From assembly GCA_964373715.1 (NCBI GenBank), contig CAYJVR010000005.1, positions 46,805-110,804 of the forward strand: a stretch of DNA of 64,000 bases, read 5' to 3'. This document shows, one piece after another, positions 34,608 to 51,800 of the stretch (the first letter of the stretch is position 1; each line of letters begins with the position of its first letter). Source of the DNA: an uncultured Planctomycetia bacterium. Its GTDB lineage: Bacteria > Omnitrophota > Gorgyraeia > 1-14-0-20-64-10. Below the pieces are notes generated by a model. That model was not told where the DNA came from. It saw only the letters and a list, made by a program, of their open reading frames with translations, and made no database searches. A program made the translations under genes and the position numbers.

Positions 34608-36516
34608 TCTTCATCTGTTCCGTGACGGCCCAGGTCTCCTTGATGAAAGAATCCTTGGACGCCGCCTTATGCGCCTGGGTATAATCCTCGATCACTTCGG
34701 CGCCGCGCTTGTCGTCCTTCTCCTTGGAAATCTGGACGTCCTGAGCGATCTTCTCCTGCATTGTGCTCAACTCCTCGAGCAGGGCGACCGGCTCCGCCTG
34801 CGGGAATTCCTGCTTCAGCAACGTTCTTTCATGTTCCCACCGGGCGTTGGAACCCGCGGCGCTTAAAAGCTGCTTAGCCGCCTCTTTGAGGTTCGAGGAA
34901 TTCTTGGAAGCCAAAACCTGAAGCTCCCTCTTCAAACCAAGAAGCACGTAATACCGGATATAGAAGGTATACGCCTCGACCCCTTTCTTCCTGGCGAACT
35001 CGAGAAGCACATTTTTCCCGAGACCCTCGATCTCGTTCGAGGTGTAATAATCTTTCTGGGCCTTGACCTCCAAGCGGCGGCGCGCGCCGACCATCATGTC
35101 TACGATCTCGGGCCGGAAAACTTCAAAGTCGAACGTGGACCTCTTGGCCTTGTTGCGCTTCTGGTACTTGCCCTCATTGCGCTTAACCATGTAGATATTG
35201 TCCGAGAGAACCCACCCCGGCATAATCTCCATATAAGCGGGGGAAACACCCGGATAGGCCGCAGCCGGCGTGTTGATGAGAGAAAACGGGAATTCCACCT
35301 TCTGCGGCAGCATCGTGGCGCCGCTGGCGATGATCGTATAGGGGGAGCCGGTCAAATCGGTGGGGAATTTTATGTTCACGCCCAAACCGAAGAAGGTCCC
35401 CTCCCCCGGCCAAATCTCCTGATCGGGCGCTTTCGCCGTATGGTTGGAACCGACGTTGGCCCCATAGCCGACGTTTCCCTTTCCTTCCGGCCAGAGAGCG
35501 GCGATTAAGAGGGCCTGGTGGTGAAACCCGACGAACGGCCCCAACAGCGCGCTCGTCACCTCCCCTTCGGCAACACCGGTGTTCGGCCCGAGGATGGAAT
35601 GGGTCACCTTGCCGTGCCGTTCGACATGCGAGTATTCCGTCAGATGGGAGGAATCCACAATCGCCCCGCTCGAAACCTCGGAACCCCACTGAAGGATGCT
35701 GTGCTTGACGATCGCGCCCTGAGAGATCTCGGTCGACTCGTCCGAGCTGCTTAAGACCGTGGCGTGAGCCACCAGCTGGGCGCTGTCGATATGGGCTGAC
35801 TCTCCCAAAAAGACACCCACCACCTTAGGGGTGTGCAGGATCGTGGCCGAAGGGCCGATCACGTTGCAGGGGGAGGAAACCTCCTTGACGTACGCCTCGA
35901 TCCCCTTGGCATAGTTCTCCAGCAAGGTCTTATCACCGCGGGAACGGGTGAGGACCCATGCGTCATCAATCGTGAGCTCGGCGAAAAGCTGGACCTCGCG
36001 GCCGCCCGTTTCAATGGCGATCAAAACCTCGAGGCCGTTGGCAAAATTCTCCGTCCCGTCAATCGTCAGGACACCGACATCGAAAAGAACGGCCCCCTCT
36101 CCGATCACGCTGCGGTTGACTAAGCGGACGTTGCGGACAAACGCGTTTTTGCCGACGACGCAGTGCGCCAGCGTGACGTGGGACAAGCCGGTCGGGAAAA
36201 CAGTGCCCTCAACCGCCACCGTCCCGGCAAAAGAAGACAGAAGGACCGGCCCGGCGAAATGGCAGCGGTTTACCCTCTTCGGGTCAAAGCCGGCGCCCGC
36301 CCAGACCTCTTTCCAGTTCTCGGCGGTATTGCCCAGTGCTTTTAGCTGCTTGAGTTGGGCGGCCGTCAACGGCTTATAGCCGGCCTTTTTCAGCCGCGCC
36401 GGCGTGGAAGTAAGAAGAGAATAAGAAGCCTTCGCCTTGGAAACACCCTTTACCAGATCGGAAGAAGAACGGGCCTTTTCAAGAGCTTTGAGAAGATCAT
36501 GATCCGGAAGATTCAT
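34525..36516 (-). CDS. Left-handed beta-helix (hexapeptide-repeat) protein that I identify from memory as DUF4954-like; a stand-alone paralog of the C-terminal module of the 3358-aa giant protein
   Basis: 663 aa. Alignable over essentially its whole length to giant-protein residues encoded at about 6600-8560 (for example HSILGPNTGVAEGEVTSALLGPFVGFHHQALLIAALWPEGKGNVGYGANVGSNHTAKAPDQEIWPGEGTFFGLGVNIKFP against ...GSVLGPNTGVAEGEVTAALVGPFVGFHHQALLIAAVWPEGKGNIGYGANVGSNHTGKEPDQEILPGEGTFFGLSVDIKYP). Lies immediately downstream of nagB. Confidence 0.8.
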   Translation of the reverse strand: MNLPDHDLLKALEKARSSSDLVKGVSKAKASYSLLTSTPARLKKAGYKPLTAAQLKQLKALGNTAENWKEVWAGAGFDPKRVNRCHFAGPVLLSSFAGTVAVEGTVFPTGLSHVTLAHCVVGKNAFVRNVRLVNRSVIGEGAVLFDVGVLTIDGTENFANGLEVLIAIETGGREVQLFAELTIDDAWVLTRSRGDKTLLENYAKGIEAYVKEVSSPCNVIGPSATILHTPKVVGVFLGESAHIDSAQLVAHATVLSSSDESTEISQGAIVKHSILQWGSEVSSGAIVDSSHLTEYSHVERHGKVTHSILGPNTGVAEGEVTSALLGPFVGFHHQALLIAALWPEGKGNVGYGANVGSNHTAKAPDQEIWPGEGTFFGLGVNIKFPTDLTGSPYTIIASGATMLPQKVEFPFSLINTPAAAYPGVSPAYMEIMPGWVLSDNIYMVKRNEGKYQKRNKAKRSTFDFEVFRPEIVDMMVGARRRLEVKAQKDYYTSNEIEGLGKNVLLEFARKKGVEAYTFYIRYYVLLGLKRELQVLASKNSSNLKEAAKQLLSAAGSNARWEHERTLLKQEFPQAEPVALLEELSTMQEKIAQDVQISKEKDDKRGAEVIEDYTQAHKAASKDSFIKETWAVTEQMKNEIHQLLSALGKSNSGSKQYAGQGASA

Positions 36517-36601: not shown

Positions 36602-37369
36602 TTACGACAAAACAAGCACGCGCGGCTCGGCCGGATACTCGCGTGTCAGCTTAGTAGATGCGGCCTTATCGATAGTGATGGTCGCCTTCGGATGCAGCTG
36701 GACAATCGTCGCCGGCACCATCGCGGTGATCGGCCCCTCAACCGTTTTCTGGATCGCTTCAGCCTTTCCAGCGCCGTTGGCAACAAGGACCAGCTGCCGA
36801 GCGTCCATAATAGTCCCAATTCCCATCGTGATTGCATATTTCGGGACCTCATTGAGGTTCCGAAAGAACCGGGCATTATCCTGCCGGGTCTTCTCATCGA
36901 GCGTCTTGACGCGGGTTCTCGAACCGAGCGAAGAACCGGGCTCGTTGAATGCAATGTGCCCGTTGGAACCAATACCCAAAAGTTGAACATCCAAACCGCC
37001 AGACTTGACGATCTGCTCCTCATACCAGCGGCAAAAACCGGGAATATCTTTGGCAGTCCCATCCGGAATATGAACGTTCTTGGAGTTCACGTTAATGTGC
37101 TTGAAAAGGTTTTCCCACATGAAAAAATGGTAGCTCTGGGGATGATCATGCGTGAGGCCGACATATTCATCCAGGTTGAAAGTGACCGTCCGGGAGAAAT
37201 CAAGACCTTCCTCTTTATGCAGCCGGATGAGTTCCTTGTAGGTCCCTAAGGGGGTTGAACCTGTTGCTAACCCAATGATAGCGCGCGGTTTACGGCGGAT
37301 AATATCAGCGATTATCTCGGCCGAAAGCTTCGAAACATCCTCATATGAGTCCTTAATGATCACTTCCAT
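36602..37369 (-). CDS. nagB: Glucosamine-6-phosphate deaminase
   Basis: 255 aa. GLATGSTP, TFNLDEYVGL, GIGSNGHIAFNEPGSSL ... SRTRVKTL and KYAITMGIGTI match E. coli NagB block for block. GGAGGAG lies upstream. Confidence 0.92.
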   Translation of the reverse strand: MEVIIKDSYEDVSKLSAEIIADIIRRKPRAIIGLATGSTPLGTYKELIRLHKEEGLDFSRTVTFNLDEYVGLTHDHPQSYHFFMWENLFKHINVNSKNVHIPDGTAKDIPGFCRWYEEQIVKSGGLDVQLLGIGSNGHIAFNEPGSSLGSRTRVKTLDEKTRQDNARFFRNLNEVPKYAITMGIGTIMDARQLVLVANGAGKAEAIQKTVEGPITAMVPATIVQLHPKATITIDKAASTKLTREYPAEPRVLVLS

Positions 37370-37491: not shown

Positions 37492-38043
37492 TTACCAAGG
37501 GACGCGGGACTCCTTTTCAGGAACTGAACCGAAAGTCTTGTCCACAACTCCATCGAAATTCTCATCCGCCTTCCCGCCGATCGCCTTTGCACCCGATTCC
37601 CCGTAGTAGAACCATGTGTCGGGTTTTCCATCAAAGTTTTTATCCCGGATCACCAGGTCTTTCAAACCATCCTTGTAGAAAACCCAGGCATCCGGCTTAC
37701 CGTCAAAACCCAGATCAAAATGCTCCTTATCCGGCTTCCCATTGACATAGGACCGGAACATATCCGGCTTACCGTCATTGTTCCGGTCCACCTCGGCCCT
37801 CACCGGCTTATCCGCCTCCATAAAGATATGGATCTCAGGCGCGCCGTCGCGGTTCCTATCCCTATCCACACGGATAAGCCGGTCCCCCTCATAAACCCTC
37901 CACTCATCCGGTTTCCCGTCCGAATCGGTGTCTCTGGGTTCCAGCCTCTCCTCGGCCCGCGCCGGCAACGCGCACAAGGCAATGGTCAGCGCCATCGAAA
38001 AGAAGATGCCGAAGACCCCTTTCCTATAGGCTATGCGTTCCAC
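37492..38043 (-). CDS. Secreted repeat protein with about 7 DGKPD/DxDxDG-like (EF-hand-like, putative Ca-binding) repeats, 183 aa
   Basis: Signal peptide, then repeats DSDGKPDEW, DRNRDGAPE, DRNNDGKPDMF, VNGKPDKEHF, GFDGKPDAW, DKNFDGKPDTW and DENFDGVVDK. Confidence 0.65.
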   Translation of the reverse strand: MERIAYRKGVFGIFFSMALTIALCALPARAEERLEPRDTDSDGKPDEWRVYEGDRLIRVDRDRNRDGAPEIHIFMEADKPVRAEVDRNNDGKPDMFRSYVNGKPDKEHFDLGFDGKPDAWVFYKDGLKDLVIRDKNFDGKPDTWFYYGESGAKAIGGKADENFDGVVDKTFGSVPEKESRVPW

Positions 38044-38059: not shown

Positions 38060-38650
38060 TCACTCCAAAAGTTTCAGCGTATCCGCCAGATAACTGACCT
38101 TTCTGTGGAGCTCCTGCCCCGCCGAAGGGAGCTTCTGGAGATCCGCCCGCAGAGCAGACACCGTCTCTTGAAGCGACTTAATCAGGTCTTTCCTCTCACG
38201 GATGCGCGGGCCCAACTGGGCCGTCACCTCGTTGATCAACTGGGCGACATCCTTCAGCTCGTCGTAGGGACGAAGCACCAGGGGCGCCAAATCGAACTCC
38301 CCTTTCGCCATGAGCCTCAAGTAGCGCTTAATACGCACCAGCGGACCTGCGACCGTGTGGGAAAGAAACAGCGTGATGAGGATCGCCACCGGCAGGATGA
38401 GCAGGAACCCGATCGACAGGCGCACATAAATCAAACGGAGGATTTCAACAAGACGCCCCTGAGGATAGACCTGGGAGAGCCTTTCGACCAGATGAACCCA
38501 GCCGGTGTTATAGACGATGCCGAGCGATATGCCGAAGAAAACAAGCAGGAGCAGGAAGGTGACGACCATGTATCGCACCTGGAGCGATACATCGGTGATA
38601 AACTGCGCACGCCGGAATTTACCCCCCATGCCTTTATTCCTCCTTATCAA
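38060..38650 (-). CDS. Small two-TM membrane protein with a HAMP-like domain, 196 aa (start may be the internal Met)
   Basis: TM1 VVTFLLLLVFFGISLGIVY, TM2 IGFLLILPVAILITLFL, then a HAMP-like segment SHTVAGPLVRIKRYLRLMAKGEFD and a coiled coil. Confidence 0.6.
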   Translation of the reverse strand: MIRRNKGMGGKFRRAQFITDVSLQVRYMVVTFLLLLVFFGISLGIVYNTGWVHLVERLSQVYPQGRLVEILRLIYVRLSIGFLLILPVAILITLFLSHTVAGPLVRIKRYLRLMAKGEFDLAPLVLRPYDELKDVAQLINEVTAQLGPRIRERKDLIKSLQETVSALRADLQKLPSAGQELHRKVSYLADTLKLLE

Positions 38651-38704: not shown

Positions 38705-39652
38705 TCATTCCCTCTTGACCATAATATCGCGGCGAATGACGAGGGGAACATCCCCCTTCGCCTCTTTGAAAAGCTTGCGTGCTTCGGCTAACGGCATATA
38801 CCGTGTAGGAAAGCCGTTGATCTCGACAATCCTGTCCTGCATAAGAAGACCCGCCTTCACGGAGGCCCCTTTCGGATCCTCCTCCTTCACCGTTAACCCC
38901 AAAGGCTCCATCGTGAGTTCCATGCCGGGCCATTTGGCCTTTTTATCCGATTTGGAAAGAAGGACTTTGCGCCCGATAGTCACCCTGACGGGAGAACCGG
39001 CAGGCCCCAGAAGAGTCTTTGCCAGCTCCTCAACCGTCATGAAAGAAAGCGAGTATCCCCAAGCGGTCACTAAAGAGTCGCCGACCGCTATGCCGGACCT
39101 GGCCGCCAACGAATTGGGCTTAACAGCCTGGACCTCCGGCCGGTCCACCTTGATTTGAACGGTGAGCCCCCAACGGTTCTGGAGCACCCCCACTGGATCA
39201 GGATAATCTTCGGCCGCTTGCGCCTTGCGCTTGAGATCGGCTAGCCGGTTCAGCGAATCTTCCGCGTTGAAAAAACCCGGCTGAATCTGCAGAGCGCGCC
39301 TGTAGAACATTTGGGCCGTCGTGAAATTCTTTTCCTCGATCGCCTGGTTGCCCATAAACAGATAATTGCGCTCCGGATCGTCGTAGAAAACCTCCTGGAT
39401 ATCTTTGCGGAGGATCGTCCATTCTCCCGCCTCAGTGCTGACAACGATCCGGTCATGATGTTCTTCGATCACCAACCCTTTCAAGTTCTCGCCGGACTTG
39501 TAATAGACCACGTCAGCATAAGAAGGACACGCGACAAAAGACATGAGCAAGAAAAACAATCCCGCAAGAAGAACGAACCGGTTCTTTCTTCCCTTGCCCC
39601 CCGCCCCCTGTCTCCCGTCTCTTCGCACGGATTCACTCATGCGGCACCTCAA
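38705..39652 (-). CDS. Secreted protein with two PDZ-like domains, 315 aa (probable start at MSESV...)
   Basis: Signal or TM segment FVLLAGLFFLLMSFVA. PDZ-like segments GLTVQIKVDRPEVQAVKPNSLAARSGIAVGDSLV and GLTVKEEDPKGASVKAGLLMQDRIVEINGFP. Confidence 0.6.
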   Translation of the reverse strand: MRCRMSESVRRDGRQGAGGKGRKNRFVLLAGLFFLLMSFVACPSYADVVYYKSGENLKGLVIEEHHDRIVVSTEAGEWTILRKDIQEVFYDDPERNYLFMGNQAIEEKNFTTAQMFYRRALQIQPGFFNAEDSLNRLADLKRKAQAAEDYPDPVGVLQNRWGLTVQIKVDRPEVQAVKPNSLAARSGIAVGDSLVTAWGYSLSFMTVEELAKTLLGPAGSPVRVTIGRKVLLSKSDKKAKWPGMELTMEPLGLTVKEEDPKGASVKAGLLMQDRIVEINGFPTRYMPLAEARKLFKEAKGDVPLVIRRDIMVKRE

Positions 39653-40599
39653 TCCTTGGCCAGTTTACGATAACTTTCGTAATGATGGATGGCTATCCCG
39701 CCGAAACTAGACTTGTGGCCGAAAGCAATGTTGACCTTCTTGATCTCCCGCGTCAAATCCGCATAGGTCTGCCCCCCGAACGTGACGTAGGCCGGGAAAA
39801 GCCCATCCTGGGTTTCCTGTCCAACGACAACCGTTTTGCCGGTCGCCTCCGCGTAATCAATCTCCTTCTGGACCAGTTGGATCGTTCCGTCGGGGCCTTC
39901 GGCAAAATTCCGGTAGGCAAGAACCGTCACGGAATCCACCATATCCAGCACGTGTTGGGAAGCCGCTTTAATCTGCCCATGCCAGAGAATACGGTAGTTC
40001 GGGTCGTCGTCAAACCAAAAAGGGATATCCGCGCCAAAATGCAGAGGCTTCGGATCAAGCTGCAGGAGTTCAGCTATTTTTGCGTTGAGATCAAGGAATC
40101 CGCCCAGAAGTTCGGCCGGCCTCTCATTCCAGGATTTTGACAGGAGGTAGACTTCGATATCGGTGTGGATGCCGTCGAAACGTTCCTGGGAGGAAACAGC
40201 GGCATTAAGCTGGCGGACCGATTCGACCCATTGCATGGGGATAGGATGGTAGCGGGTCATCCCCCATCGGGGATCACCCGCCAGCGCATAGACCATCAAA
40301 CCGGACGAATGGGCCTGGCGGTTGAAATCCCGATAGACCTGGTCCATGGGGGCCTTGAGGTTATAGGCCGCCATGTAGAGGGTATCAATACGGTGGACGC
40401 GGCAGAAATCAAGGAGCTGGGCCCGGGAGTCCGCTCTTACTAAAACAGCGGCATCCCAAACCCACATCGCACGGGAGGGCCCCTCCAGGACAGCCGGCGC
40501 AGAATTGACGGCGGCAGGGGGAAAAAGAACCGCCGCCGCGGCAACAACCCGCAGCAGGCCGAAAAACCAACTCCGCTGTCCCGTTTTAGAGATCGTCAC
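39649..40599 (-). CDS. Secreted glycoside-hydrolase-like TIM-barrel protein, 316 aa; homologous to the central domain of the 764-aa protein
   Basis: Signal peptide. Colinear similarity to 764-aa residues TWVWKYDP ... GGLAIHCYDSYRLL (here AMWVWDAA ... GGIAIHHYESYRKL). Confidence 0.65.
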   Translation of the reverse strand: MTISKTGQRSWFFGLLRVVAAAAVLFPPAAVNSAPAVLEGPSRAMWVWDAAVLVRADSRAQLLDFCRVHRIDTLYMAAYNLKAPMDQVYRDFNRQAHSSGLMVYALAGDPRWGMTRYHPIPMQWVESVRQLNAAVSSQERFDGIHTDIEVYLLSKSWNERPAELLGGFLDLNAKIAELLQLDPKPLHFGADIPFWFDDDPNYRILWHGQIKAASQHVLDMVDSVTVLAYRNFAEGPDGTIQLVQKEIDYAEATGKTVVVGQETQDGLFPAYVTFGGQTYADLTREIKKVNIAFGHKSSFGGIAIHHYESYRKLAKD

Positions 40600-41510
40600 T
40601 CCAGAGAGAGGTCGTCAAGATAAACCGTCCCGGCATGCCCGGCATCCGTGAACAGATCCCCCTCAAAAACGATCGAAATTGCCGCCAGCTGGGAATGGTC
40701 AATGAAGTACTCATCCAAAGGAATGGTTGCTTTCTGCCATTCCTTTGTGATCTTACCCTTAGGCAGATATTTGCCGATTTCCTGGGATTTGACGGAATCT
40801 CCGACCCGGTCCCAGTGCCTGTCCGAAACGCCGACAACGAAGTTTTCATCCCCATTCTCGCCGCGGACCCAGAAGGTAACCGCCTTGTAGTCCGTCGCGT
40901 CGAGGAACTGCTCCTCCACGGGGCCGGGGTTCGGGTTTTCCGCAGTCGGGGCAACCAAAGCGCCCGGAGATTTTAACAGCGTGTAGTAGCCGCACCACCC
41001 GCCGGAATCATACGGCCCTCCCTGATTCTGCTTCTCATACCGGAGCAGGAGGACCTGGGTCCGCCTTCCCTCGACCGTCTCCTCCCTCCTGCTGACCATA
41101 GCCTTAGATGGGGCCTTGATGAAAACGTTGGCCCTGTTGTCCATTTTGTTCTTGATCTCAGACCCCTCAAAATCGTCCACAACCAGCTTCGGCTGAGCCG
41201 ACGGAGCGAGCGTTGACGCGGAGACCTTCGCCGAACCGGCGGGAGCCACGACCTGCCCCGCCGCAGGAGCCGCCACGGACTCAGCGGCCGCAAATGTCGC
41301 CGAAGAAACGATCCCCCCGATCAGCGCGGCGCCGAGCGCCCATCCGACAACATTGCTTTTTGAGCTTTTCACGAACTGAGCGTTCATCGTACTCTCCTCC
41401 TTACTCGAGTGTGACATCGTCCACATAAATCGTGCCGGTCCCCGCGCCGCCGGGGAGAACCGACCCTTCAAAACAGATGGCAATCGAAGCCAACTCTTTG
41501 AGATCCACAA
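40596..41510 (-). CDS. Secreted protein with one CBM-like beta-sandwich module (GGWCGYYTLL family); the real start is probably MNAQF at about 41387
   Basis: Signal peptide VVGWALGAALIGGIVSSATFAAA. Module GGWCGYYTLL ... TFWVRGENGDENFVVGVSD ... EWQKATIPL ... GTVYLDDLSLE. Confidence 0.7.
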   Translation of the reverse strand: MWISKSWLRLPSVLKGRFSPAARGPARFMWTMSHSSKEESTMNAQFVKSSKSNVVGWALGAALIGGIVSSATFAAAESVAAPAAGQVVAPAGSAKVSASTLAPSAQPKLVVDDFEGSEIKNKMDNRANVFIKAPSKAMVSRREETVEGRRTQVLLLRYEKQNQGGPYDSGGWCGYYTLLKSPGALVAPTAENPNPGPVEEQFLDATDYKAVTFWVRGENGDENFVVGVSDRHWDRVGDSVKSQEIGKYLPKGKITKEWQKATIPLDEYFIDHSQLAAISIVFEGDLFTDAGHAGTVYLDDLSLE

Positions 41511-42036
41511 GGAATGTACTTAAAGGAACCGTGGCCTTCTGCCACTCGGTGGTCAGCTTGCCCGCCGGCAGATATTTGCCGATCTCTTCCGACTTCACCG
41601 AATCACCGACTTCGTCCCAATGCCTATCCGCGACACCAAGCACAAAATTCTCGCCGCCCGTCATCCCTTTGACCCACAGCGTAATCGTCTGGAACGTAGT
41701 GGCGTCGAAATAGCGGGACCCGGCTTTCAGCAGAGTGTAGTAGCCGCACCACCCGCCGGAATCGTACGGCCCTCCCTTGGCCTTTTTATCATACTTCACC
41801 ATCAGCGCTCCGGCCCCTTCATGAACCTGTTCTTTGACCCGAAGAGCCAAGGCCCGCGAGGGCTCCTGAACGTAGGTGTTTGACCGACCGCCCATTTTGT
41901 TGGCGGAACCTTCAAAATCGTCTATGACCTGCATCGCATGGGCGGACCCGATCCCCCACAAGAGAAAACCCGCGATAGAAAAAACAATGCCGAAAAACCG
42001 AACCGATTCTTTTCTCATGGCGTTTATTCTCCCCAA
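41401..42036 (-). CDS. Secreted protein, single CBM-like module paralog, 211 aa (start probably at 42018)
   Basis: GGWCGYYTLL ... LWVKGMTGGENFVLGVAD ... EWQKATVPL ... GTIYVDDVTLE. Confidence 0.7.
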   Translation of the reverse strand: MGRINAMRKESVRFFGIVFSIAGFLLWGIGSAHAMQVIDDFEGSANKMGGRSNTYVQEPSRALALRVKEQVHEGAGALMVKYDKKAKGGPYDSGGWCGYYTLLKAGSRYFDATTFQTITLWVKGMTGGENFVLGVADRHWDEVGDSVKSEEIGKYLPAGKLTTEWQKATVPLSTFLVDLKELASIAICFEGSVLPGGAGTGTIYVDDVTLE

Positions 42037-43358
42037 TCCTTGAGCATATCCTCTTGACTCTTGCGGATAAACCGCAGGTTATCGATAAACAAAGCCCCCT
42101 TCCCCGGCCTGGGGAAGTTGATCACAAATGATCCCATCTGAGTCCAATCTAGCTTACCAAAATCGGACAGCGGTATCACTACTTCTTGCCAATCGGCCGT
42201 CACTCCGTTCGGCAGGTACTTGTCCACCGTCCCCGCCTTGACGGAGTCGCCTATCGTCAGCCACGACTTGTCGGCCATGCCGACCTCAAAAAACTCCCCC
42301 CCCTTTTCGCCGCGCACCCAGAATGATACGCTTTTGTAGGGGGTCAAGTCAAAATAAGCCCCGTCAATCTGGTTCAACAGCGTGTAGTAGCCGCACCAGC
42401 CGGTCGTGGATTTGTCCACACCAAGCCTCAAAGACCTGCCCTTATCGCCAAAGTGCGGCTCGGCCACGCGGCTGAACTCGCACACCGAAGGAAGCCTCTT
42501 GTAGGCGTTCGCCTTCCTGCCGAGAAGATTCAAGTCGCAGTGGTCAAAATCGTCCAGCAGGAGCTCCCCCTTCTCCATGATCTGCGATTCCCGGTCCACC
42601 AGCAGGTCTTTATGGAACTCAATGTCCGACACCCAGAAAGCACCCTCGCCGTCTTCGTTGAAATTAAAAACGATCGTGTACACCTTATTCAGGTCGGCCC
42701 CGAAAAAATCTTCCAGAGGGACCACCACCTTCTGCCACTCGGTGGTAACGCCGTTGGGCAGGTACCGGTAGATGGACCCGGCAATGACCGCGTCTTCTCT
42801 CTTGTTCGAGATCGTGTCGTTCATGCCGACCTCAAAGGTCTCACCCCCCTTTTTTCCCTTGATCCAAAAGGTCATCGTCAAATATTGGCTGACATCGGCC
42901 AAAATCACCACGTAACCGCCGGTAAAAGCAGGGAACGGGGTCTTCAAATACCGGAAATACATACCCTCGCCCGATTTGTCGGTCCGGTAGATTTTCCTGT
43001 CAAAGAAAACACCGTATTTGCACGGCTTCATCGCGTACCCGCCGATCCGGCCGCGTTGGGCGAACTGCAGCTCCCCCCAAAAAAGCTCAGTCCCTTCCGG
43101 CAGCGGCGGCACATCTCTTAAAGGAACCCCGCCGTCTATCGACACCTGTGTGATATTGGGAAAAGTTCCCCTGGGAGGCGCCACAGAGGCGGCAACCGCG
43201 GGGGCCGGCGCAACCGGAACTCCCTCGGCCTCCGCCGCTTCAGCGGGGCGGGGGGCGGGAGACAGGGGGCACGCAAGAAGAAAACTCAATCCGCTCATCC
43301 AGAGTATTTTTCCTATCCCGTGGCCCATGCCCCGCGCCCCCTGTCTCCCTCGCCCCAT
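42024..43358 (-). CDS. Secreted protein with two tandem CBM-like modules, 444 aa
   Basis: Module 1: FWIKGKKGGETFEVGMND ... EWQKVVVPL ... FWVSDIEFH. Module 2: TGWCGYYTLL ... FWVRGEKGGEFFEVGMAD ... DWQEVVIPL ... LFIDNLRF. Confidence 0.7.
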   Translation of the reverse strand: MGRGRQGARGMGHGIGKILWMSGLSFLLACPLSPAPRPAEAAEAEGVPVAPAPAVAASVAPPRGTFPNITQVSIDGGVPLRDVPPLPEGTELFWGELQFAQRGRIGGYAMKPCKYGVFFDRKIYRTDKSGEGMYFRYLKTPFPAFTGGYVVILADVSQYLTMTFWIKGKKGGETFEVGMNDTISNKREDAVIAGSIYRYLPNGVTTEWQKVVVPLEDFFGADLNKVYTIVFNFNEDGEGAFWVSDIEFHKDLLVDRESQIMEKGELLLDDFDHCDLNLLGRKANAYKRLPSVCEFSRVAEPHFGDKGRSLRLGVDKSTTGWCGYYTLLNQIDGAYFDLTPYKSVSFWVRGEKGGEFFEVGMADKSWLTIGDSVKAGTVDKYLPNGVTADWQEVVIPLSDFGKLDWTQMGSFVINFPRPGKGALFIDNLRFIRKSQEDMLKDWGE

Positions 43359-43389
43359 CCCTCCTGCCCCCTGTCCCGCGTCTCTTGTC

Positions 43390-45684
43390 TCATTCTTTCA
43401 GCTCCACAATATTAAAAGAGGTGGGATCTCCCCACTGGCGCTCCGGAGAAGTGGAGACGAGACATTTCTGAGGCTGTCTCGCCTCATCGGTGTCTGATCC
43501 GTCAAACATCATCCCGAACCGGAAACCGGCCTGAAGTTTCTTCGTGTTGAGGACCCCTCCCTGCAGCGCATACTGCTCTTTCGATATCTTTCCAGGCAGG
43601 GGGGCATCCCCCGCCGCGGCGGGCTCGACACCCACCTTCTTTGTGATGTTCTGGAAGAGCAGCGCAACCGGGATCCGGACTTCAAGGTTGTAACCATTCT
43701 GGGTTTTCTTGGCGGCGATCTTGGCCTGCTCCAGTATCTTGGCGTCCACCGAGGGGACCCAAACGTAGATCTCCGGGGGGATCGCTTGGAAATTGCCCGG
43801 GCTGAACCCGAACTGGAAATCATCGGTGGAGTTCACCGCCTCCTTATAATCCCCGTAGAGATCGGCGTCGAACCACACTTCGAGATGGTCCCCCTCCCAC
43901 ATGTCGGCGCTGGCCTTTTCCTGGACGATGGCGTTGTCCGTAGTCTCCACCGCCATCAGAACTGCGTCCGGCTCCCATTTCAGCGCAAACTTGAAAGAAA
44001 CGTCATGGGGGCCAGCCCAAGCGCCGACACCGTAGACAACCTGCTGTTTTTTATTGAGGGTGATCCACTCCGCATCAGCCCAATCGGCCAACTCCGCATC
44101 GACCACCACCGGCGCCTTGGTCTTGGCGGCAAAAAGTTTCGGAATCTTCTCGGAACGTTCCCGGGTCGGCACATTGCGCCCTTTCTGGAGGAGGCGGTAG
44201 CTGTCGTAGCAGTGGATCGCCAGCCCGCCGAAACCGGGGGCCTTCATGTAGGTTTCGGCCACCTTCTTCAGCTCCTGCTCCATCTCGGCCCAGCCCTCTT
44301 CGTAGAAGGTGTTGCGGCGCTTGCCCTGGTTCATTTGGATCAGATCCTGCGTCTCGACGCCGATCACGATCTTCTTACCGGCCCGGTTGGCCATGTCTAT
44401 GTGGAAACGGGCGTTCTCAACGATGTCGGTGGTGGTGTCGTAGTAATCCATCAGCGCGGCGTAGTCCACCTGCTTGAGTATTCCCTCCTCAAGCTCGGGG
44501 GAGTTCTTGTAAAAAACGGGGATCGCCACGCCGAAGTAAAAGTGGTGGTCCCCCTTCTCCTTATCAATCATCTGCCGGAGATCGACCAGCACTTCGAGGA
44601 AATCGGCTTTCAGTTTCTCCCGGTCGCCTGTCTCCCAATCGGAGGTGAGGTACGGCTCGATGTCGAGCGACACCCCGTCAATCTTTTCCTCTTTCGGCCT
44701 CACCTTGTTGAACTCCAGATAGCCCCCCACCCAGTTGAGCACTTGGTGGTGGTTCGCCTTCAGCGCCCAGAGGGGGTTGCCCTGAAGGGCCTCCACCTCG
44801 ATGCCGCGGGAATGGGCCTCCCGGATGAATTCGGCCAAACCGTCCTGGTAAGACTGGGGAGTCTTGTTGATCGGGTCCTCGCCCAGATAGATGTACATCG
44901 CCTCGATCGCGGTTGCTTCGCAGAAATTGAGCAGCTCCTTTCTGATCTCTTTGCTGTTGACCGGGTCGTATTTCCAGACCCAGGTATAGCGCTTGTAGCG
45001 GGTATCCTTATCGGCCTTAGGGCTGTTCTCCTTTTGAATGTTTTCCACTTCTGCGTCGTAATCGAACGCGATGTCGTCAATCTGGATCGCCCCTTTGCCT
45101 TCATAGCGGAACCAGAGGACGAGCGACCCCATCCGCTTCATGTTGATGTCGGAACGCAATCCGGCGAGAGGGACCTTTACCTGCTGCCATTCGGTCGTCA
45201 CCCCTTGCGGGAGGAAAGACATGATGGAGCCGGCATAGACCGAGTCAATCTCCAGGTCCTGCATATTGTCGTCTGCCATGCCGATGTCGAAGCGCTCGCC
45301 CCCGTTCTCCCCCTTCACCCAGAAAGTCAAGGCGTTGTGCCTGGAAACGTCAATGCCGTTCAGCAAGGTGTACCAGCCGCACCAGCCGCCCGATTTGGAG
45401 AACTCCAAACGCAGGACCCGGCCTTTCTTGTCCGGACGGGTATCCGACACCTTGGTGATGACAGTATAGGAAGGGCGGCGGGCCCAGGTCCCCTGAAAAG
45501 CGTCGAGCCGGTTATTCCGCTCAGCGAAAAGACCTTGGGTAGCTCCTGTCTCGAAGTCGTCTACCAGTATAGCCTTGGGGGAAACCGGCTGTTCGGCGGC
45601 AACAACCCTCTTTCCCGAAAAGAGGATATAACCTCCTAGGAATAAACTGATAACGACCCGTTTCTGATGGGAAACCATAGTCAT
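43390..45684 (-). CDS. Secreted multidomain protein (764 aa): N-terminal CBM-like module, a glycoside-hydrolase-like TIM-barrel domain, and a C-terminal CBM9/DOMON-like domain; the start is probably the Met at 45678
   Basis: GGWCGWYTLL ... FWVKGENGGERFDIGMAD ... EWQQVKVPL ... IQIDDIAFD, then a glycoside-hydrolase-like TIM-barrel region homologous to 39649..40599, then a C-terminal region with W/aromatic-rich CBM9-like character (ADWADAEWITL ... LKWEPDAVLMAVETTD). Confidence 0.75.
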   Translation of the reverse strand: MTMVSHQKRVVISLFLGGYILFSGKRVVAAEQPVSPKAILVDDFETGATQGLFAERNNRLDAFQGTWARRPSYTVITKVSDTRPDKKGRVLRLEFSKSGGWCGWYTLLNGIDVSRHNALTFWVKGENGGERFDIGMADDNMQDLEIDSVYAGSIMSFLPQGVTTEWQQVKVPLAGLRSDINMKRMGSLVLWFRYEGKGAIQIDDIAFDYDAEVENIQKENSPKADKDTRYKRYTWVWKYDPVNSKEIRKELLNFCEATAIEAMYIYLGEDPINKTPQSYQDGLAEFIREAHSRGIEVEALQGNPLWALKANHHQVLNWVGGYLEFNKVRPKEEKIDGVSLDIEPYLTSDWETGDREKLKADFLEVLVDLRQMIDKEKGDHHFYFGVAIPVFYKNSPELEEGILKQVDYAALMDYYDTTTDIVENARFHIDMANRAGKKIVIGVETQDLIQMNQGKRRNTFYEEGWAEMEQELKKVAETYMKAPGFGGLAIHCYDSYRLLQKGRNVPTRERSEKIPKLFAAKTKAPVVVDAELADWADAEWITLNKKQQVVYGVGAWAGPHDVSFKFALKWEPDAVLMAVETTDNAIVQEKASADMWEGDHLEVWFDADLYGDYKEAVNSTDDFQFGFSPGNFQAIPPEIYVWVPSVDAKILEQAKIAAKKTQNGYNLEVRIPVALLFQNITKKVGVEPAAAGDAPLPGKISKEQYALQGGVLNTKKLQAGFRFGMMFDGSDTDEARQPQKCLVSTSPERQWGDPTSFNIVELKE

Positions 45685-45814: not shown

Positions 45815-48800
45815 TTAGGCGAAGACCGCCAGGTAAGTTTTGCCCTTCAGATCCTGAAAAGTCATCAGGCCCAGAAGCTTGACGCCCGCGTCTTCATAGC
45901 CGCGCAGGGCCAGCAAAATAACGGCGGCGGGATTGACCCTCTGCACATCGTCCAGCCAAATCTCCATCAGAGGAAGATCCAGCGGATTAGCCACAGTCTG
46001 ATCCATCCCTAAATCCTTGAAGATAACGCCCGGCTTTTGATACTCCTCCGAAGGCTGCAGCGGAATGGCCACCACGCGGATCAGCGCGCGCAGATCATCC
46101 GGAAGCTCTCCGCCGAATTTTCTCTCCAAGCTGGACACCAAAGAACTCTGGGAATAAACATTCACCGAAGAGGGGATCTCTCTCACCCAGACGGTGTTTG
46201 CCCCGGAAGGAATCCGAGCCATCTGATCGGGGGTAAGTGTTTCTAAAAATTCCTCAACCGAAATCCGTTGAAGATCTTCCAAACCGGCGGAAGGGGAGGA
46301 CCGGTCTTGACGGTTAATACGGTACAAAACGTATGCGGCCAAACCACCGAAGGCGGCTCCCCCCAACGCCCAACTCCACCAAGGGATATCGAGAGAGGAA
46401 ATCTGAGCCTCCTCGGCAACCGGAACCACCGCGCCGTCTCTGGGCAGAACAACCTGGACAGGAACGGGAACCGGCGGAACAATGGCCACGTCATGGCTAC
46501 GGAAGGTCACCTCCAACCGTCCCATCTCCTCGTTGTAAACCACTCGGAGTTCCTTAACAACGGGAATCTGCCGGGCGCCAACCCATTCGAAAACAGCGGG
46601 AAGGCGAGGGCCGGTTTCGTCTTTCTTGCCGCCCAACGCGGCCTCCCCCTTGGGCCCGTAAGTAACCAAGCCTCCCCGATAAAGTGTCCCGAAAATCGTT
46701 CTGCCGGCGCCATCCACACCTTCCGGCTCAAAAGGAAGTGGACCATCCGTTCCATCCACTTTTTTGTTGTAGGTCGCAATCGGAATCTCCCGAGTGATCA
46801 CGCCAATCAGAGACTCTCCCTGATAGGTCAGGTAGGCAACCAACCCATGCGTCGGAGCAAGGGCTCTCTTGGCATCGTTCGGATCGGTCCGGATAACAAG
46901 CCCCAGACGAGCCCCGCGGGTGTCAACTGTCAGGCCGTCCGAAACCACCCGGTAAGGACCGGTGACCAAGTCCCCGACCGGGCCGATCGTGTAAACCGAA
47001 TAGGTTTGACGGCCTTCGGCATAAGGAGCGCGCCCGGAAATCTTGACGGTCCGCTCAACGGGAAGAAGAATTCCGCCCTTCTCGACGAAGCGCAAACCCT
47101 TGGCCCATCTATCGCCCGATTCAAAAACCGGATCCACGAGCCAGACCTGCTGCGTGCTGGCGGTCATCACCGGCACAATCTCCCCATCTTTTCCGTGGAC
47201 CCTGACATAACCGAGGAGGTTCGCGCCCGGGCCGAACGGGTCAAGCACGTTTTGCGCCGCGGGCAGAGACACCGGGAAGAGACTCGGGGAGACCAACGGC
47301 TCCCCATTCTTGTCTCTTTCCTTATCTTGCGCCAGGTGGATTTTTAGCCTATCCCGCTCCGCCTCCAATACCTTGGCATGCGCGCCCAACCCCTGCCCGA
47401 TCAAACCGGAGAGATCCACACCGACCGCTCCGCGCAAAACAGGAAGGGTCGGAGGCCCCCGGCGCAAATCCCTCAAAAGAAATTCCATCAGCTCTATCCG
47501 GCGCTGTTCCTCGAGTAAAACCGCCTTGTTGACGGCGGCTTGGGCAATTTTAGCCTGATCGACCGTCTTGGCATCAAGAAGCTGGACTTGAGCCTTCTTC
47601 ATGCCGATCTGGACCTCCCACACCCGTTCAAGGTAACGGAGCGATTCCCGCATTCTGGAATAATCGGGGGAAGCACCCTGGGCGGCGAGATCCGCGCGCC
47701 CCTGCGCGATCTGAAGAGCGAGCTGGTCCGCCTCCTGCTGAAGACGCCCCTTTCCCCGCGCCTGAAAAGAGGAGGAAACCGCTTCGATCTTCATCGCGTC
47801 TGGAACCGGCGCCGCCACACCCGGGAAAACCGAAGGCATCAGCCCTTCCCAGCCGAACAACCCGGGAGAATTCTCGTTGATCATGATCCTTCCGGCCACA
47901 TGGGTAAAGGCACTCTGCTGGTAACCGCTCTGGGCCGCCGCCGCCTGATCCCGGTAGCGGGCGGTTTGTTTGGTCTGATAATCAACCCCTTTTCTGCCTT
48001 TTTCCAGACGGGCCTGCTGGTACTGAAGACCCTCGCTCGCTTTGGCTAAGCGGTTTTGCTGGTAAACTACCCCTTGCTGCGCGCTGCCCAACTGCCGGGT
48101 GAAATAATTCACACCTTCCATCGCGTCAAGCATCGCTTTTCTCTTGGCCGATGGATTGTTGCCGACCGGCATACGCAGAGCATCCACATGGGCTTGTTTG
48201 GCCTGATTCAGCTGAAACTGCATGTTCGCCTCCGCCTGCAGAGCCTGCCGAAGCGCAAACTCCGCCTGCATCATATCCACAAGCGCTCCACGGATCGCGA
48301 TCTGTGCCGCCACAACTTCGGTCTCGGCCTCCCTCACCCGGCCCGGCTGCGCCGACAGTTCCTGATAAGCGAGATTCATGTTGACATACGCCTGCTGGAC
48401 CTCCAACAGGCTGAGCGCCGCTCCGCGGAAAGCGGTGCCGCTGCCTAAAAGGTCCTCTCCAGGCACCGTCACCGACGGAGGCAGCGGCAGCCCAATGCTG
48501 TCGAGCCCCTGAAGATTCGCGAGCCGGTCCTCCCAGCGCTTCACCTCTTGCTGTTCCTGCTGCTGCGCCAGATGAACCCGTTTCGCATCCCCCTGCGCCG
48601 GCATCGGAATGCTCGCCTGCGCTTTGGCCTGAGCAAGCTGCGCCTGCGCCACAAGGAGGCAGGCAGCATTAATCTCCTTCTGCGCTTTGGCCTGAGCCGC
48701 CTTGTCATCTGGAGGAACCAATACAAGGGCCCGGCGGGCCTGAGTTTCTCCCTGGAGCGCCTGAAGCACGGGAATCTGCAGCGGCAGCAGCTTCGCCTGA

Positions 48801-51800
48801 CGCGCCAACCCATCTCTCTCCTGCTGGGCGACTCTCTTCTGGGTGTCGGCGCTTCGCCAATCGCGCTGAGCCGCTTGTTGTTCCGACAGATCAACCGCCA
48901 ATCGCTGACGGTCCAACGCCTCGTTCAATCTCCTTTGCGCCTGCCCGACTCCAGGATGGTCCTGAGCCGCCTGAGCGGCATAGGCCGCCTCCCGCTGATA
49001 CCTCTGTTGGTCTATCTTCAGAAGATCTCCCCGCAGTTCCCACAACCGGGCCAAACGGGCCTGGATTCTTCCTTGAAGTTCTTTTTGCGCGGCAGGCTCT
49101 AATTTTCCAGCGGAGACCGTCACAAACGGCACATCCTGCGCGGCCGGCCCCGAGAGAAGACCTCCCCTCTGAGGCAAAAGCAGGCGGCCGTTCTGGAGAA
49201 AATCCTGGGAGAGCAGTTCCTGCTCTTCCAGCATCTTCATCTGGATCTCCGCCTTCTGCTGAGACTCTTGGAAGAACCCTCGGGTCGACTGGAAATACGG
49301 ATCCTGCGGGGCCAGTGGTTCCAGTTGAGCGACCACGCGGTCGAGAAAAACGGCCAACGCCTTCTGATTGTCCTTTGCCGTCAGAAAAACCCGGGCCGTC
49401 TCCGCCCGGAGTTGTTTCTCCAAAACCGGCCTGTCGGCCGGCGCCACCTTCTGAAGTTGTCCGGCGAGGTCCCTCGCCTTCTGGATTTGGGACACCACCG
49501 CTTGCTCCTGCAAGGCGGTCATCTTTTCGTAAGCCGGCAAAATCTGGCTGGCGGCATAAGTCTTATCCTGAGTCTGGACAAATGGAACCTGCCCGGCTCC
49601 CTTATCGGCAGGCCTCTCCTCCGCAAGCCCATTGGCCGCGGGTGCTTGAGGCAGATTGGCAAGCATGGCCGCGGACACCGTGGAGCTGTCGCCGGCTATT
49701 TTCCGGACCAAGCCGGTCTGATCAATCAAACCGACGCCGACATATTTCTTCGAATCGGCATCCAGCGCGACCAGTTGGCCGCTCTCGGCGGGATGCGGCA
49801 GAACATAAGCGGTCCGTCCATCCACCGGGGCGGTGAGAATTCCGTTGGGGCTCACCTCCGTCTTGATGTTCTTAATCTCAATCGGCTTCCCCTGAACATT
49901 CGGCCGCCATCCGTCGTAAGGATTCGCCGGAGGAACCGGGAGATGCTCGAGAAGAACGGGAGAAAGGATTGACGCATCCCGGCCGGCCGGCGTAATTTTT
50001 CCGTCCCTCATCAGATAAGCGGCCGTGATGTATTCATTCTGGAACGGATCCAAGACAACCAGCTGCCCATACCTCATCTGGTCCGGCAAAAGATAGGCAG
50101 TCTGCCCCTGATAGGTTGTGGCGAGAAGCCCGTTGGCCTTTTCCTCCGCCGCAAAGGAAAGCTTGATGGGCGCGCCTTCCGCCGTGGGCCGCCAACCCTT
50201 GAGAGGATTCTCCGGAGGCGGCGGAAGCAGCGACACCAGGCTTTGCGCCAGCGGCGCCTGATTGCTTCCAACCCCCTCGACACTCCCATCCCGCAGAATA
50301 AACGCTACCGTTTCGTATTGATTCCAAATCGGATTGATCGCAACCAGTTGGCCGTATCTGCCGGCGTAAGGGGCAACATAGGCGGACTGCCCGTGATACA
50401 TCGTTTTCAAGATTCCGTTGGGACCCACCTCGGTCTCCAAGTTTTTAAGCTTGATTTGCTGTACCCCATCCACCGTGGGACGCCAGTTGGCGGCCGCTTT
50501 TTCCGGCGGCGGCAAATTCCGCAGGATCGCCGGGGTAATGCTCGAATCGCCCCCGGCAACCGCCGAAAGAGCCCCGGCCCGGTTCAGATAGGCCACCGTG
50601 GCGTAATCGTTGGTGGCCGGATCCACGGCCACCACCTGTCCGTAGGCGCTCCGGTGAGGCATGAGGTAGCCGGTGCGGCCGTCATTCAACGTTATTGTCA
50701 GCAAACCGTTGTGCCCCGTTTTCGTTTTAAGCGATGAGAGATTGACCGGACGGCCCTCCTCCATCGTGGGCCGCCAATTCTTCAGGTGGTCGGGCGGAGG
50801 GGCCGGCAAAAGTTTGACCATATCCGCCGGCGGGTCGTCCCTGTCCACTCCCGCGGACCCAATACTGCCGTCGCTGCGGAGGTGCGCTACTGTCTGGTAC
50901 TGGCCTGTTACCGGATCCATAGCGACAAGCTGGCCGTAGGTTCTCTCGTGCGGCAGAATGTAGGCGGTTGTTCCGTCGTATCTGGTTTTCAAAAACCCGG
51001 AAGGATCGGGCACCGCATCAAACTTCAGCGCAATCGGTCGATTATCCTGGCCGGTAGGCCGCCATGTGACGATAATTTCGGGCGGAGGAACTCCCCCCGG
51101 ACCGATTCCCGGGCCCGCCAATGGACCCGGCAGAGGCCCATTGCCTCCTTGGACAATGGTCTTTCCCTCTTTTTTCTCTTTTTCCTTTTCCTTCGTTGGC
51201 TCTTGCTTTTGCTCTTTCTCAACCACAGCCAGATTCAAGACATCCTGCGCAACCGCCAGGGAATTATCGCCGGCACCCAGCACAACAGGCGCAACAACGG
51301 CCTGTTCCCCGCGATTCTGAGGAAGTTCCACCGCGCTTCCCAATTGGATATCCATGTTATCCAAAGGATCTCCAAGCACTCCGAGCTGAAGGTCATTCGG
51401 AACCCCGCCATTCAGAGAATCGGCTCCTATGGCCGGCGCGTTGGCAGTCATCGCTCCAAGCCCGAAGAGCCCCGCCATGACCGCCGCCGCATACCCCAAC
51501 CGCCTCATAACGGGAGCCCACCGGAGCAGGAAAGATTCCTGCGGCTCTTGAAGGGCCCCCGAGGAGGAAACGGTTTCCAACTGCTGCCGCGCCAGCGCTT
51601 CCGTTTCCTTCCCTTCCAGCTCAAATTCGGTTTCTATCCGGTTGGCAAGGACCGGCCGCACCACAGAGGCAATCTTCTCCGATTTCAAGAGAGCGGCCAC
51701 CCCCGCAGGAAGCCCGTCGAAGATCTGCTCGACCGGCGCCCCGGTCACAGAGAATAGGCGGGGGGAATCCGGCGAAAGACGGGTCTCAATGATGTGGAAC

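Follow-up and report, generated by a model that had tools for sequence, protein, structure and literature searches.

A conserved Omnitrophota operon with five CBM30-like module paralogues and glycosidase-like proteins, a candidate system for glycan capture

What is the role of four adjacent genes for exported proteins, all built from one recurring beta-sandwich module, in an uncultured bacterium of the phylum Omnitrophota? This question is raised by a stretch of 64,000 nucleotides (contig CAYJVR010000005.1 of GenBank assembly GCA_964373715.1, positions 46,805 to 110,804 of the forward strand), which is called the window; all coordinates below refer to it. Omnitrophota are uncultured and widespread, are thought to depend on other cells, and have a diet that is largely inferred. 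The array belongs to an operon that is among the few multi-gene blocks intact across the sampled phylum and that links exported glycan-binding proteins to amino-sugar catabolism, and it offers a concrete, testable handle on Omnitrophota nutrition. What is new is an undescribed conserved operon with five fixed paralogues of a carbohydrate-binding module (CBM), an unannotated glycosidase-like family, and a CBM inside an ATP-binding cassette (ABC) permease. The module as such is no more than a divergent branch of a known CBM lineage, and the system is of a known kind, namely CBM-assisted glycan utilisation. The array and the enzyme gene behind it comprise the following features (aa, amino acids; ORF, open reading frame; TIM, triosephosphate isomerase).

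40596-45684, minus strand: array of four co-directional genes, together with five module copies (ORFs and alignment)
43390-45684, minus strand: gene D, 764 aa, with signal or anchor, CBM30-like module, TIM-barrel glycosidase-like domain and CBM9-like domain (ORF, Pfam)
45049-45579, minus strand: module copy of gene D, aa ~36-212 (alignment, BLASTP)
44170-45021, minus strand: TIM-barrel glycosidase-like domain of gene D, aa ~222-505 (likeness to E, A1 profile)
43396-44082, minus strand: CBM9-like C-terminal domain of gene D, aa 535-763 (Pfam PF06452)
42024-43358, minus strand: gene C, 444 aa, with signal peptide and two modules, C1 at 42594-43151 and C2 at 42069-42575 (Pfam CBM30)
41401-42018, minus strand: gene B, 205 aa from M7, with signal peptide and one module
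40596-41387, minus strand: gene A, 263 aa from M42, with signal peptide, low-complexity linker and one module at 40599-41198 (Pfam CBM30)
39649-40599, minus strand: gene E, 316 aa, exported stand-alone TIM-barrel glycosidase-like protein

An earlier note on this DNA had described four neighbouring genes of 304, 211, 444 and 764 aa that carry one, one, two and one module copies; all four ORFs were found on the minus strand, and the five copies were borne out by MAFFT alignment and pairwise BLASTP. The copies (A 105-304, B 34-211, C 70-255, C 262-430 and D 36-212) align over about 160-180 columns with 26-55% pairwise identity. The BLASTP E-values among them range from 6e-16 to 3e-73 (A against B, 50% identity and 3e-73; D against the other copies, 1e-24 to 5e-37), and they far outscore the best match of any module to 300 shuffled modules (24.6 bits), so the repeat is real and far beyond chance. 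The module extends from a conserved [IL][IV]DDFE strand, which lies about 55 residues ahead of GGWCG, to the closing DD[IL] strand; its length is therefore ~165-180 aa and not ~130 aa as previously estimated, the first ~50 residues having been left out. The consensus motifs described before (GGWCG[YW]YTLL, [TS][FL]W[VI][KR]G, [YF]LP.G.T.[ED]WQ and [IV].[IVL]DD[ILV]) were recovered by a regular-expression check with small deviations, such as F-T-G-G-Y in place of G-W-C-G-Y in the first module of the 444-aa protein. Outside the array there is a sixth, diverged copy, in residues ~40-215 of an ABC permease encoded at 24709-26001 (BLASTP 4e-6 to 2e-14 against the other modules; Pfam CBM30 1.9e-8), and no copy beyond these six was found in the window, giant ORFs included.

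The likeliest start of gene B is M7, and the resulting 205 aa are identical to the database protein P0121. For gene A the most likely start is M42, giving 263 aa, and with the start moved there the apparent overlap between A and B vanishes; the stop of A overlaps the start of E by four bases, GTGA, in the window. The N-termini of all four array proteins show a basic stretch followed by a hydrophobic stretch. In gene C orthologues the signal region ends in AxA|E-type signal peptidase I sites with no conserved lipobox, and the N-termini of gene D orthologues resemble membrane anchors more. Thus, the hydrophobic N-terminal signals behind the former label "secreted" are visible, but what they support is inner-membrane export only. 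A lipoprotein anchor for C had been considered on account of an LLAC in the window and was ruled out, since the orthologues have AxA|E sites and no conserved lipobox Cys. The promoter and terminator scan returned weak consensus matches only, which were not relied on.

Which family does the module belong to? The earlier note could not place it in a known CBM family, a view that Pfam and existing annotation do not support. With gathering cut-offs of 27 bits for CBM30 (PF21582), 27 bits for CBM_11 (PF03425) and 23.4 bits for CBM9_1 (PF06452), CBM30 matched A with 31.2 bits, C with 74.7 bits (two stretches, 1.1e-20), D with 30.4 bits (4.6e-7) and the permease with 34.9 bits. CBM_11, the family of the Clostridium thermocellum Lic26A-Cel5E module (PDB 1v0a), gave marginal scores of about 29 bits against its cut-off of 27 (C 29.2; D 29.1, 1.2e-6), stayed below it for B (23.4 bits) and did not match A. 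Most orthologues, including most of those of B, are already tagged PF21582 in public precomputed annotation, and an NCBIfam search of the array proteins yielded nothing useful. The solved CBM30 of C. thermocellum CelJ (1wmx, 2c24) was matched by phmmer with C at 3e-6 and with D at 1.7e-5, and profile A3, made of 37 modules, matched it at 1e-9 over 81 of 203 positions only. The modules and the solved CBM30 have in common the signature [FW].[VI]KG..GGE.F..G..D ... T.[DE]WQ..[KV].PL. An AlphaFold2 model of B, built on the module-profile alignment, is all-beta with a predicted local distance difference test (pLDDT) score of 90.7, and this beta-sandwich (jelly-roll) fold is superposable on solved CBM30 and CBM11 members. 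We regard the module, with near certainty, as a divergent CBM30/CBM11 homologue and not as a new kind of domain.

The array departs from CBM30 as known (the CelJ/Cel9D-Cel44A module; PDB 1wmx, 1wzx, 2c24) in several respects: identity is only 19%, the CBM30 match stops short of the N-terminal third of the module (DDFE, GGWCGYYTLL), an uncharacterised TIM family takes the place of GH9, GH44 or GH51 cellulases as partner, the context is amino-sugar metabolism and not cellulolysis, and five fixed paralogues stand in one operon with one further copy embedded in a transporter. That the module should count as a separate CBM family, as a matter of naming, is nevertheless highly improbable and is largely refuted at the superfamily and Pfam level. 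The short extent of the match to the solved CBM30, the identity of 19-24% to solved CBM11 and CBM30, and the GGWCGYYTLL stretch, whose conserved Cys is not in the aligned CBM30 sequence, speak for such a family, and the verdict of CAZy curators could fall on either side; three of the four proteins exceed the curated CBM30 threshold, and both the tags of the orthologues and the signature clearly common with the solved CBM30 speak against it.

The module probably binds carbohydrate. The DDFE and terminal DD motifs are presumably a structural calcium site, as in other beta-sandwich CBMs; if so, the consensus first described is in part structural, and the ligand site is better sought in GGWCGYY, FWVKG and EWQ. 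Proteins might alternatively be the ligands, the modules being adhesive or protein-binding beta-sandwiches (CIA30-like chaperones or scaffolds, or prey adhesins) that reuse the fold and bind no carbohydrate. This is quite improbable: the best matches by sequence and by fold are bona fide CBMs, fusions of the module to glycosidase-like domains recur in several phyla, and the carbohydrate-metabolic context is consistent throughout. Moreover, all five orthologous groups have retained aromatics of the exposed type (W90, Y94, W115 and W159 in B numbering from M7), and two of the conserved Trp align with Trp in CBM30. Characterised CBM30 and CBM11 members belong to type B and bind xyloglucan as well as beta-1,4 and mixed-linkage glucans (PMC10992016; PMC3079729).

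As a separate observation, the lone Cys of GGWCGYY (C91 of B from M7; about 41746-41748) is kept in all five groups, with conservation of at least 90% in B and A; that no partner Cys is conserved with it is unusual in an exported domain.

The second component is enzyme-like. As the earlier note had proposed, the 764-aa protein fuses the module to a TIM barrel and a CBM9-like domain. Its middle domain (aa ~222-505) and E are paralogues with 30% identity (1e-34); the middle domain also matched the A1 profile (1.7e-50) and PDB 10yv (1.3e-4) and has the motifs LDIEPY, MDY and GVET. The C-terminus of D is CBM9_1 (PF06452; 55.6 bits, 8e-15, residues 535-763), which is also present in D orthologues. 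Neither E nor the middle domain of D matched any Pfam or NCBIfam model, and every named protein among the 211 indexed homologues of E is an Omnitrophota hypothetical protein. The model of E is a (beta/alpha)8 barrel with eight beta-alpha units by DSSP, in which E149 follows the strand 143-146 and E262 ends the strand 256-262. Conservation was counted over 145 near-full-length, diverse TIM domains, with the following result.

beta1: W-x-W, 134 and 138 of 145
beta3: G, 144 of 145
beta4: H-x-D-x-E-P-Y, D 141, E 142 and P 133 of 145 (D147 and E149 in E)
beta5: P-F-W, W 141 of 145
beta6: M-x-Y-R, M 135, Y 137 and R 137 of 145
beta7: G-x-E-T, E 133 of 145 (E262 in E)

Carboxylates after strands 4 and 7 of an eight-stranded barrel are the arrangement of the 4/7 type of glycoside hydrolase (GH), like clan GH-A. 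The N-E-P acid/base motif is absent from strand 4, where the residue before the Glu of H-x-D-x-E-P-Y is I, V or variable and not Asn. Two mechanisms would fit: a classical retaining 4/7 centre, in which E149 would be the acid/base and E262 the nucleophile, and a GH18-like substrate-assisted centre that would consist of D147, E149 and Y229. The best fold matches of the enzyme model were Cwp19 (top; PDB 5oq2), GH18 and PgaB, and Sph3-type exopolysaccharide hydrolases were also listed. The TM-scores to the Cwp19 GHL10 domain and to GH18 are about 0.5, no Pfam GHL10 (PF02638) or GH18 (PF00704) match was found at E <= 0.1, and the DxxDxDxE motif is absent. Compared with Cwp19 GHL10 and the GH18 chitinases, the family has a 92%-conserved beta7 Glu and fits the 4/7 type; GH18 lacks a beta7 Glu.

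The only solved sequence relative of the family is PDB 10yv, a protein of 275 aa entitled 'Putative GH97 from Cellulomonas fimi', which E matched over its full length (3.5e-5 with the single sequence; 9e-13 with the profile, residues 5-273). E and the middle domain of D share with it the motifs WxW, GD..W, D-V-E-P-W, PWW, G-L-E-T and HYE, whereas 10yv is only about 25% identical and has neither a CBM nor a signal-peptide array. The 10yv sequence, rebuilt from the printed alignment, matched no Pfam family even at E <= 10. Since neither 10yv nor E matches any Pfam family, GH97 models included, the GH97 label is unverified; E, D and 10yv all lack a GH97 match, and E and 10yv are single domains of 275-316 aa, whereas GH97 has N- and C-terminal beta-sandwich domains around the catalytic one. 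The searchable literature held no paper on 10yv and none on a new GH family from C. fimi.

The family is large. A HMMER scan of 1.84 billion representative proteins (clusters at 50% identity) with an E-family profile yielded 3,687 clusters at E <= 1e-3 and 941 at E <= 1e-30, among which the named members, from Paenibacillus, Brevibacillus and Thermoclostridium, are annotated as hypothetical. Among 66 multidomain representatives, 25 carry Pfam CBM30, 9 CBM_11, 3 CBM_4_9, 2 SLH and 1 PDZ; with CBM30 in 25 of 66, the pairing of TIM domain and CBM30-like module is a recurrent evolutionary unit, also outside the phylum. Architectures outside Omnitrophota were observed in L033-L046, L051, L055, L056 and L074 (our locus numbers) and in protein P0241: module-TIM fusions like gene D occur in Nitrospinales (L044, L047) and Sericytochromatia (L065), and in Paenibacillus the family is represented by an isolated gene, whose single product of ~600 aa contains two TIM domains in tandem and lacks a CBM. 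A glycosidase-like family without a Pfam model, reaching Paenibacillus and Cellulomonas and often fused to CBM30-like modules, is thereby brought to attention.

Is the array a fixed unit, and with which genes does it travel? Loci were obtained from two E homologues and from a scan of one genome per species, and their six-frame translations were then searched with profiles. The array makes up the leading half of the operon, whose genes stand in the order [module-TIM-CBM9][module-module][module][module][TIM][PDZ][HAMP-like][DGKPD-repeat protein][nagB][DUF4954]. All Omnitrophota loci with sufficient flanking sequence share this order, even where E is only about 43% identical, and D orthologues of 743-819 aa occupy the same position in all of these loci. 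In an orthology set of 18 loci with all five modules, plus the window, each module position forms its own orthologous group, with 57-66% identity within and 29-50% between positions, and 95 of 95 modules have as their nearest neighbour in other genomes a module of the same position. Such orthology within positions indicates that the module duplications predate the radiation of these lineages, and the retention of all five copies argues for non-redundant roles. The operon is mentioned neither in the 2023 Omnitrophota survey (PMC10066038) nor in the giant-gene preprint (bioRxiv 10.1101/2023.11.21.568195). The genes that follow E in the window are these.

38705-39652, minus strand: PDZ-domain protein (Pfam PDZ, PDZ_6, PDZ_2)
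38060-38650 and 37492-38043, minus strand: two small conserved genes, for a HAMP-like membrane protein and a DGKPD-repeat exported protein, respectively (ORFs)
36602-37369, minus strand: nagB, glucosamine-6-phosphate deaminase (TIGR00502, 333 bits against a cut-off of 236.9)
34525-36516, minus strand: DUF4954 left-handed beta-helix protein (Pfam PF16314, 1.3e-52)

In Omnitrophota loci the TIM gene is always followed by the PDZ gene, which in the window has a 4-nt start/stop overlap with E (TTGA) that suggests translational coupling; in one distant relative of the family PDZ is fused to the TIM domain. The HAMP-like and DGKPD genes are syntenic in most loci; an extra (third) TIM copy stands in their place in L026, L027, L030 and L031. 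Downstream of the array, nagB was found in 18 of the 19 loci with at least 4 kb beyond the PDZ gene (exception L029), and the DUF4954 gene always follows nagB. No characterisation of DUF4954 was found in the searchable literature. The DGKPD protein (183 aa, exported) consists of repeated D-x-[DN]-x-DGKPD motifs that resemble calcium-binding repeats.

A fixed order in every sampled Omnitrophota lineage is what would be expected of a core function, and the operon could be a housekeeping envelope system in which the cell remodels or recycles its own peptidoglycan or exopolysaccharide, with NagB and DUF4954 serving amino-sugar recycling or synthesis. The top fold match of the enzymes, Cwp19, is a cell-wall hydrolase, and the PgaB and Sph3-type exopolysaccharide hydrolases in the same list, the co-conserved PDZ and HAMP-like proteins, and signal peptides that on their own predict a periplasmic location agree with such a role. 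We consider it improbable, since the conserved block contains no synthase, glycosyltransferase or flippase (looked for in the two E-homologue loci), D has the CBM-enzyme-CBM9 layout that is usual in enzymes acting on external polysaccharides, and the relatives in Paenibacillus and Brevibacillus are isolated genes without cell-wall context. The occurrence of the same module on a sugar importer likewise points to the uptake of a soluble product.

This importer belongs to a sugar ABC and catabolic cluster ~6 kb downstream of the array operon on the same strand, with the following genes.

26026-28284, minus strand: SBP_bac_1 substrate-binding protein (SBP) fused N-terminally to a MalF/UgpA-type permease, 752 aa
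24709-26001, minus strand: MalG/UgpE-type sugar ABC permease with the sixth CBM30-like module (25357-25884) between transmembrane segments TM1 and TM2
23133-24326, minus strand: nagA (TIGR00221, 292.9 bits against a cut-off of 225.65)
22080-23099, minus strand: 339-aa protein without known function
20593-21798, minus strand: NagC-like ROK protein (ROK/NagC matches, best to NagC)
18090-20537, minus strand: GH94 disaccharide phosphorylase (Pfam GH94)

The second permease matched Pfam BPD_transp_1 together with CBM30 (1.9e-8), and NCBIfam UgpE/MalG over residues 218-427. Its insert of ~175 aa is kept in Omnitrophota: most of the 120 homologues listed are 375-463 aa long (two are truncated), and most are tagged PF00528 plus PF21582. 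From the topology of MalG, we take the TM1-TM2 loop, and hence the sixth module, to be periplasmic. The fusion of the SBP to one permease, which also occurs in L076 and L077, and the CBM in the other imply that both periplasmic components of the importer are tethered to membrane subunits, an unusual transporter design; no description of a CBM-bearing ABC permease was found in the searchable literature. Similar clusters differ in detail. In L076 a sodium:solute symporter replaces NagA, and in L077 three small extra genes precede ROK and a phosphohexomutase follows GH94. In the window and in L077 the CBM-bearing permease is immediately followed by NagA. One other genome has the cluster (L076) and the array (L009) on the same contig in the same order and orientation. 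The GH94 phosphorylase had no NCBIfam model match.

We propose, as a reading that is somewhat favoured by these data, a relay of capture, cleavage and import. The module-only proteins and the modular enzyme D would bind a beta-linked glycan, as single chains or as oligosaccharides, the stand-alone E and the middle domain of D would cut it, the CBM-bearing and SBP-fused ABC importer would take up the oligosaccharide fragments, and the GH94 phosphorylase, NagA and NagB would complete catabolism in the cytoplasm. For the ligand, the chances appear about even that it contains N-acetylglucosamine (GlcNAc) and is chitin-like or peptidoglycan-like; the balance is tipped towards such a glycan by the conserved nagB, the NagA beside the permease, the NagC-like regulator and the enzymes of GlcNAc polymers among the fold matches. 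Chitin or chito-oligosaccharides, cellulose and peptidoglycan, which the earlier note had suggested, are still the candidate ligands. Omnitrophota are viewed as host-dependent nanobacteria (PMC10066038; bioRxiv 10.1101/2023.11.21.568195), and given this lifestyle, itself inferred, the walls of other cells may be the source of the glycan. A stronger version, in which the modules, the TIM family and the CBM-bearing importer form one dedicated, Omnitrophota-universal machine with which these host-dependent, ultra-small bacteria grip and harvest the GlcNAc wall glycans of other cells, each paralogue has its own specificity or relay position, and the TIM domains constitute a new GH family with a GH18-like or hybrid centre, seems doubtful.

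Several findings weigh against the relay and its GlcNAc ligand. Protein B scored 26.7 bits against CBM30, 0.3 under the cut-off, and the Pfam match covers mainly the C-terminal 60-100 residues of the module. CBM30 and CBM11 are on record as binding beta-glucans and neither chitin nor peptidoglycan. No member of the TIM family has been characterised, and the family's sole solved relative is labelled merely 'putative GH97'. Signal sequences, read from the ORFs, predict export across the inner membrane and not release from the cell, and conservation in small genomes across the sampled phylum fits a housekeeping envelope role as well as feeding. Finally, the GH94 protein scored 502 bits against C. 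thermocellum cellobiose phosphorylase and 413 bits against Vibrio chitobiose phosphorylase. Its assignment as a chitobiose phosphorylase was rejected as unproven, the cellobiose enzyme scoring higher.

The same architecture might serve a beta-glucan, whether cellulose-derived, mixed-linkage or beta-1,2-glucan, with import of cellobiose or cellodextrins and with NagA and NagB as mere neighbours. We judge this to be unlikely. Against it stand the fixed position of nagB in nearly all loci with enough downstream sequence, the location of NagA right behind this permease with its CBM in the window and L077, and the closest match of ROK, which is to NagC. In addition, the best enzyme fold matches, Cwp19, GH18 and PgaB, act on GlcNAc polymers, and the cluster contains no classical cellulase family.

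How the proposed relay with a GlcNAc-containing ligand compares with known systems can be seen in two cases. The Vibrio (GlcNAc)2 catabolic operon encodes an ABC importer, a GH94 chitobiose phosphorylase, a sugar kinase and a phosphomutase, and the cluster of permease, NagA, ROK and GH94 presumably repeats its logic. Like the Vibrio operon, the Omnitrophota cluster has an ABC importer beside GH94, a ROK-family protein and NagA, and L077 adds a mutase of the PGM/PMM family; unlike it, the cluster has the SBP fused to one permease and the CBM to the other, and its ROK protein carries a helix-turn-helix domain and is NagC-like. In comparison with the non-catalytic surface glycan-binding proteins of Bacteroidota polysaccharide utilisation loci and the CBM-only proteins of Fibrobacter, the locus has ABC import and no SusC/SusD pair. 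The array proteins, moreover, are not lipoproteins (they have no conserved lipobox), and the set is fixed across the sampled phylum and not strain-variable as for those surface proteins.

Of the two further glycoside-hydrolase-like paralogues that had been reported nearby, E at 39649-40599 is confirmed, whereas the other was recovered by weak BLASTP and four motifs and was not detected by the A1 profile.

33438-34505 (ORF 33438-34607), minus strand: gene F, probable very divergent TIM-family paralogue (weak BLASTP and motif order)

F matched E at 6e-4 and has NVEPY, PWW, MTYRN and GVET in the family order, with Asn replacing the Asp of the D-x-E motif. A single-sequence PDB search with F gave noise only, and among the compared loci F occurs only in the closest relative, L005. 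From these traits of the sequence, F is probably a very divergent member of the TIM family. A 15-bp GC-rich hairpin followed by a T-run (34449-34483, minus strand) lies just downstream of the DUF4954 stop and is embedded in the codons of gene F for its RRRQRIFFFAAAIFL signal peptide. This hairpin may be a by-product of Arg and Ala codons, or else a terminator or attenuator that overlaps the coding start.

The window also contains several giant ORFs. One of 3358 aa (5943-16019) carries a SIS sugar-isomerase domain (1212-1342) and a DUF4954/left-handed beta-helix region (2677-2846); this combination echoes the nagB-DUF4954 pair and is a hint at amino-sugar phosphates as the substrates of DUF4954. 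Directly upstream of the array, an ORF of 2437 aa (45815-53128) without a Pfam match encodes five tandem repeats of ~95 aa, WRP[TN]...G...AY.LP....YGQLVA.DP....Y..VA, and then a long Q/A-rich, coiled-coil-like region. Two further giant ORFs lie at 53085-56819 and 56839-63963.

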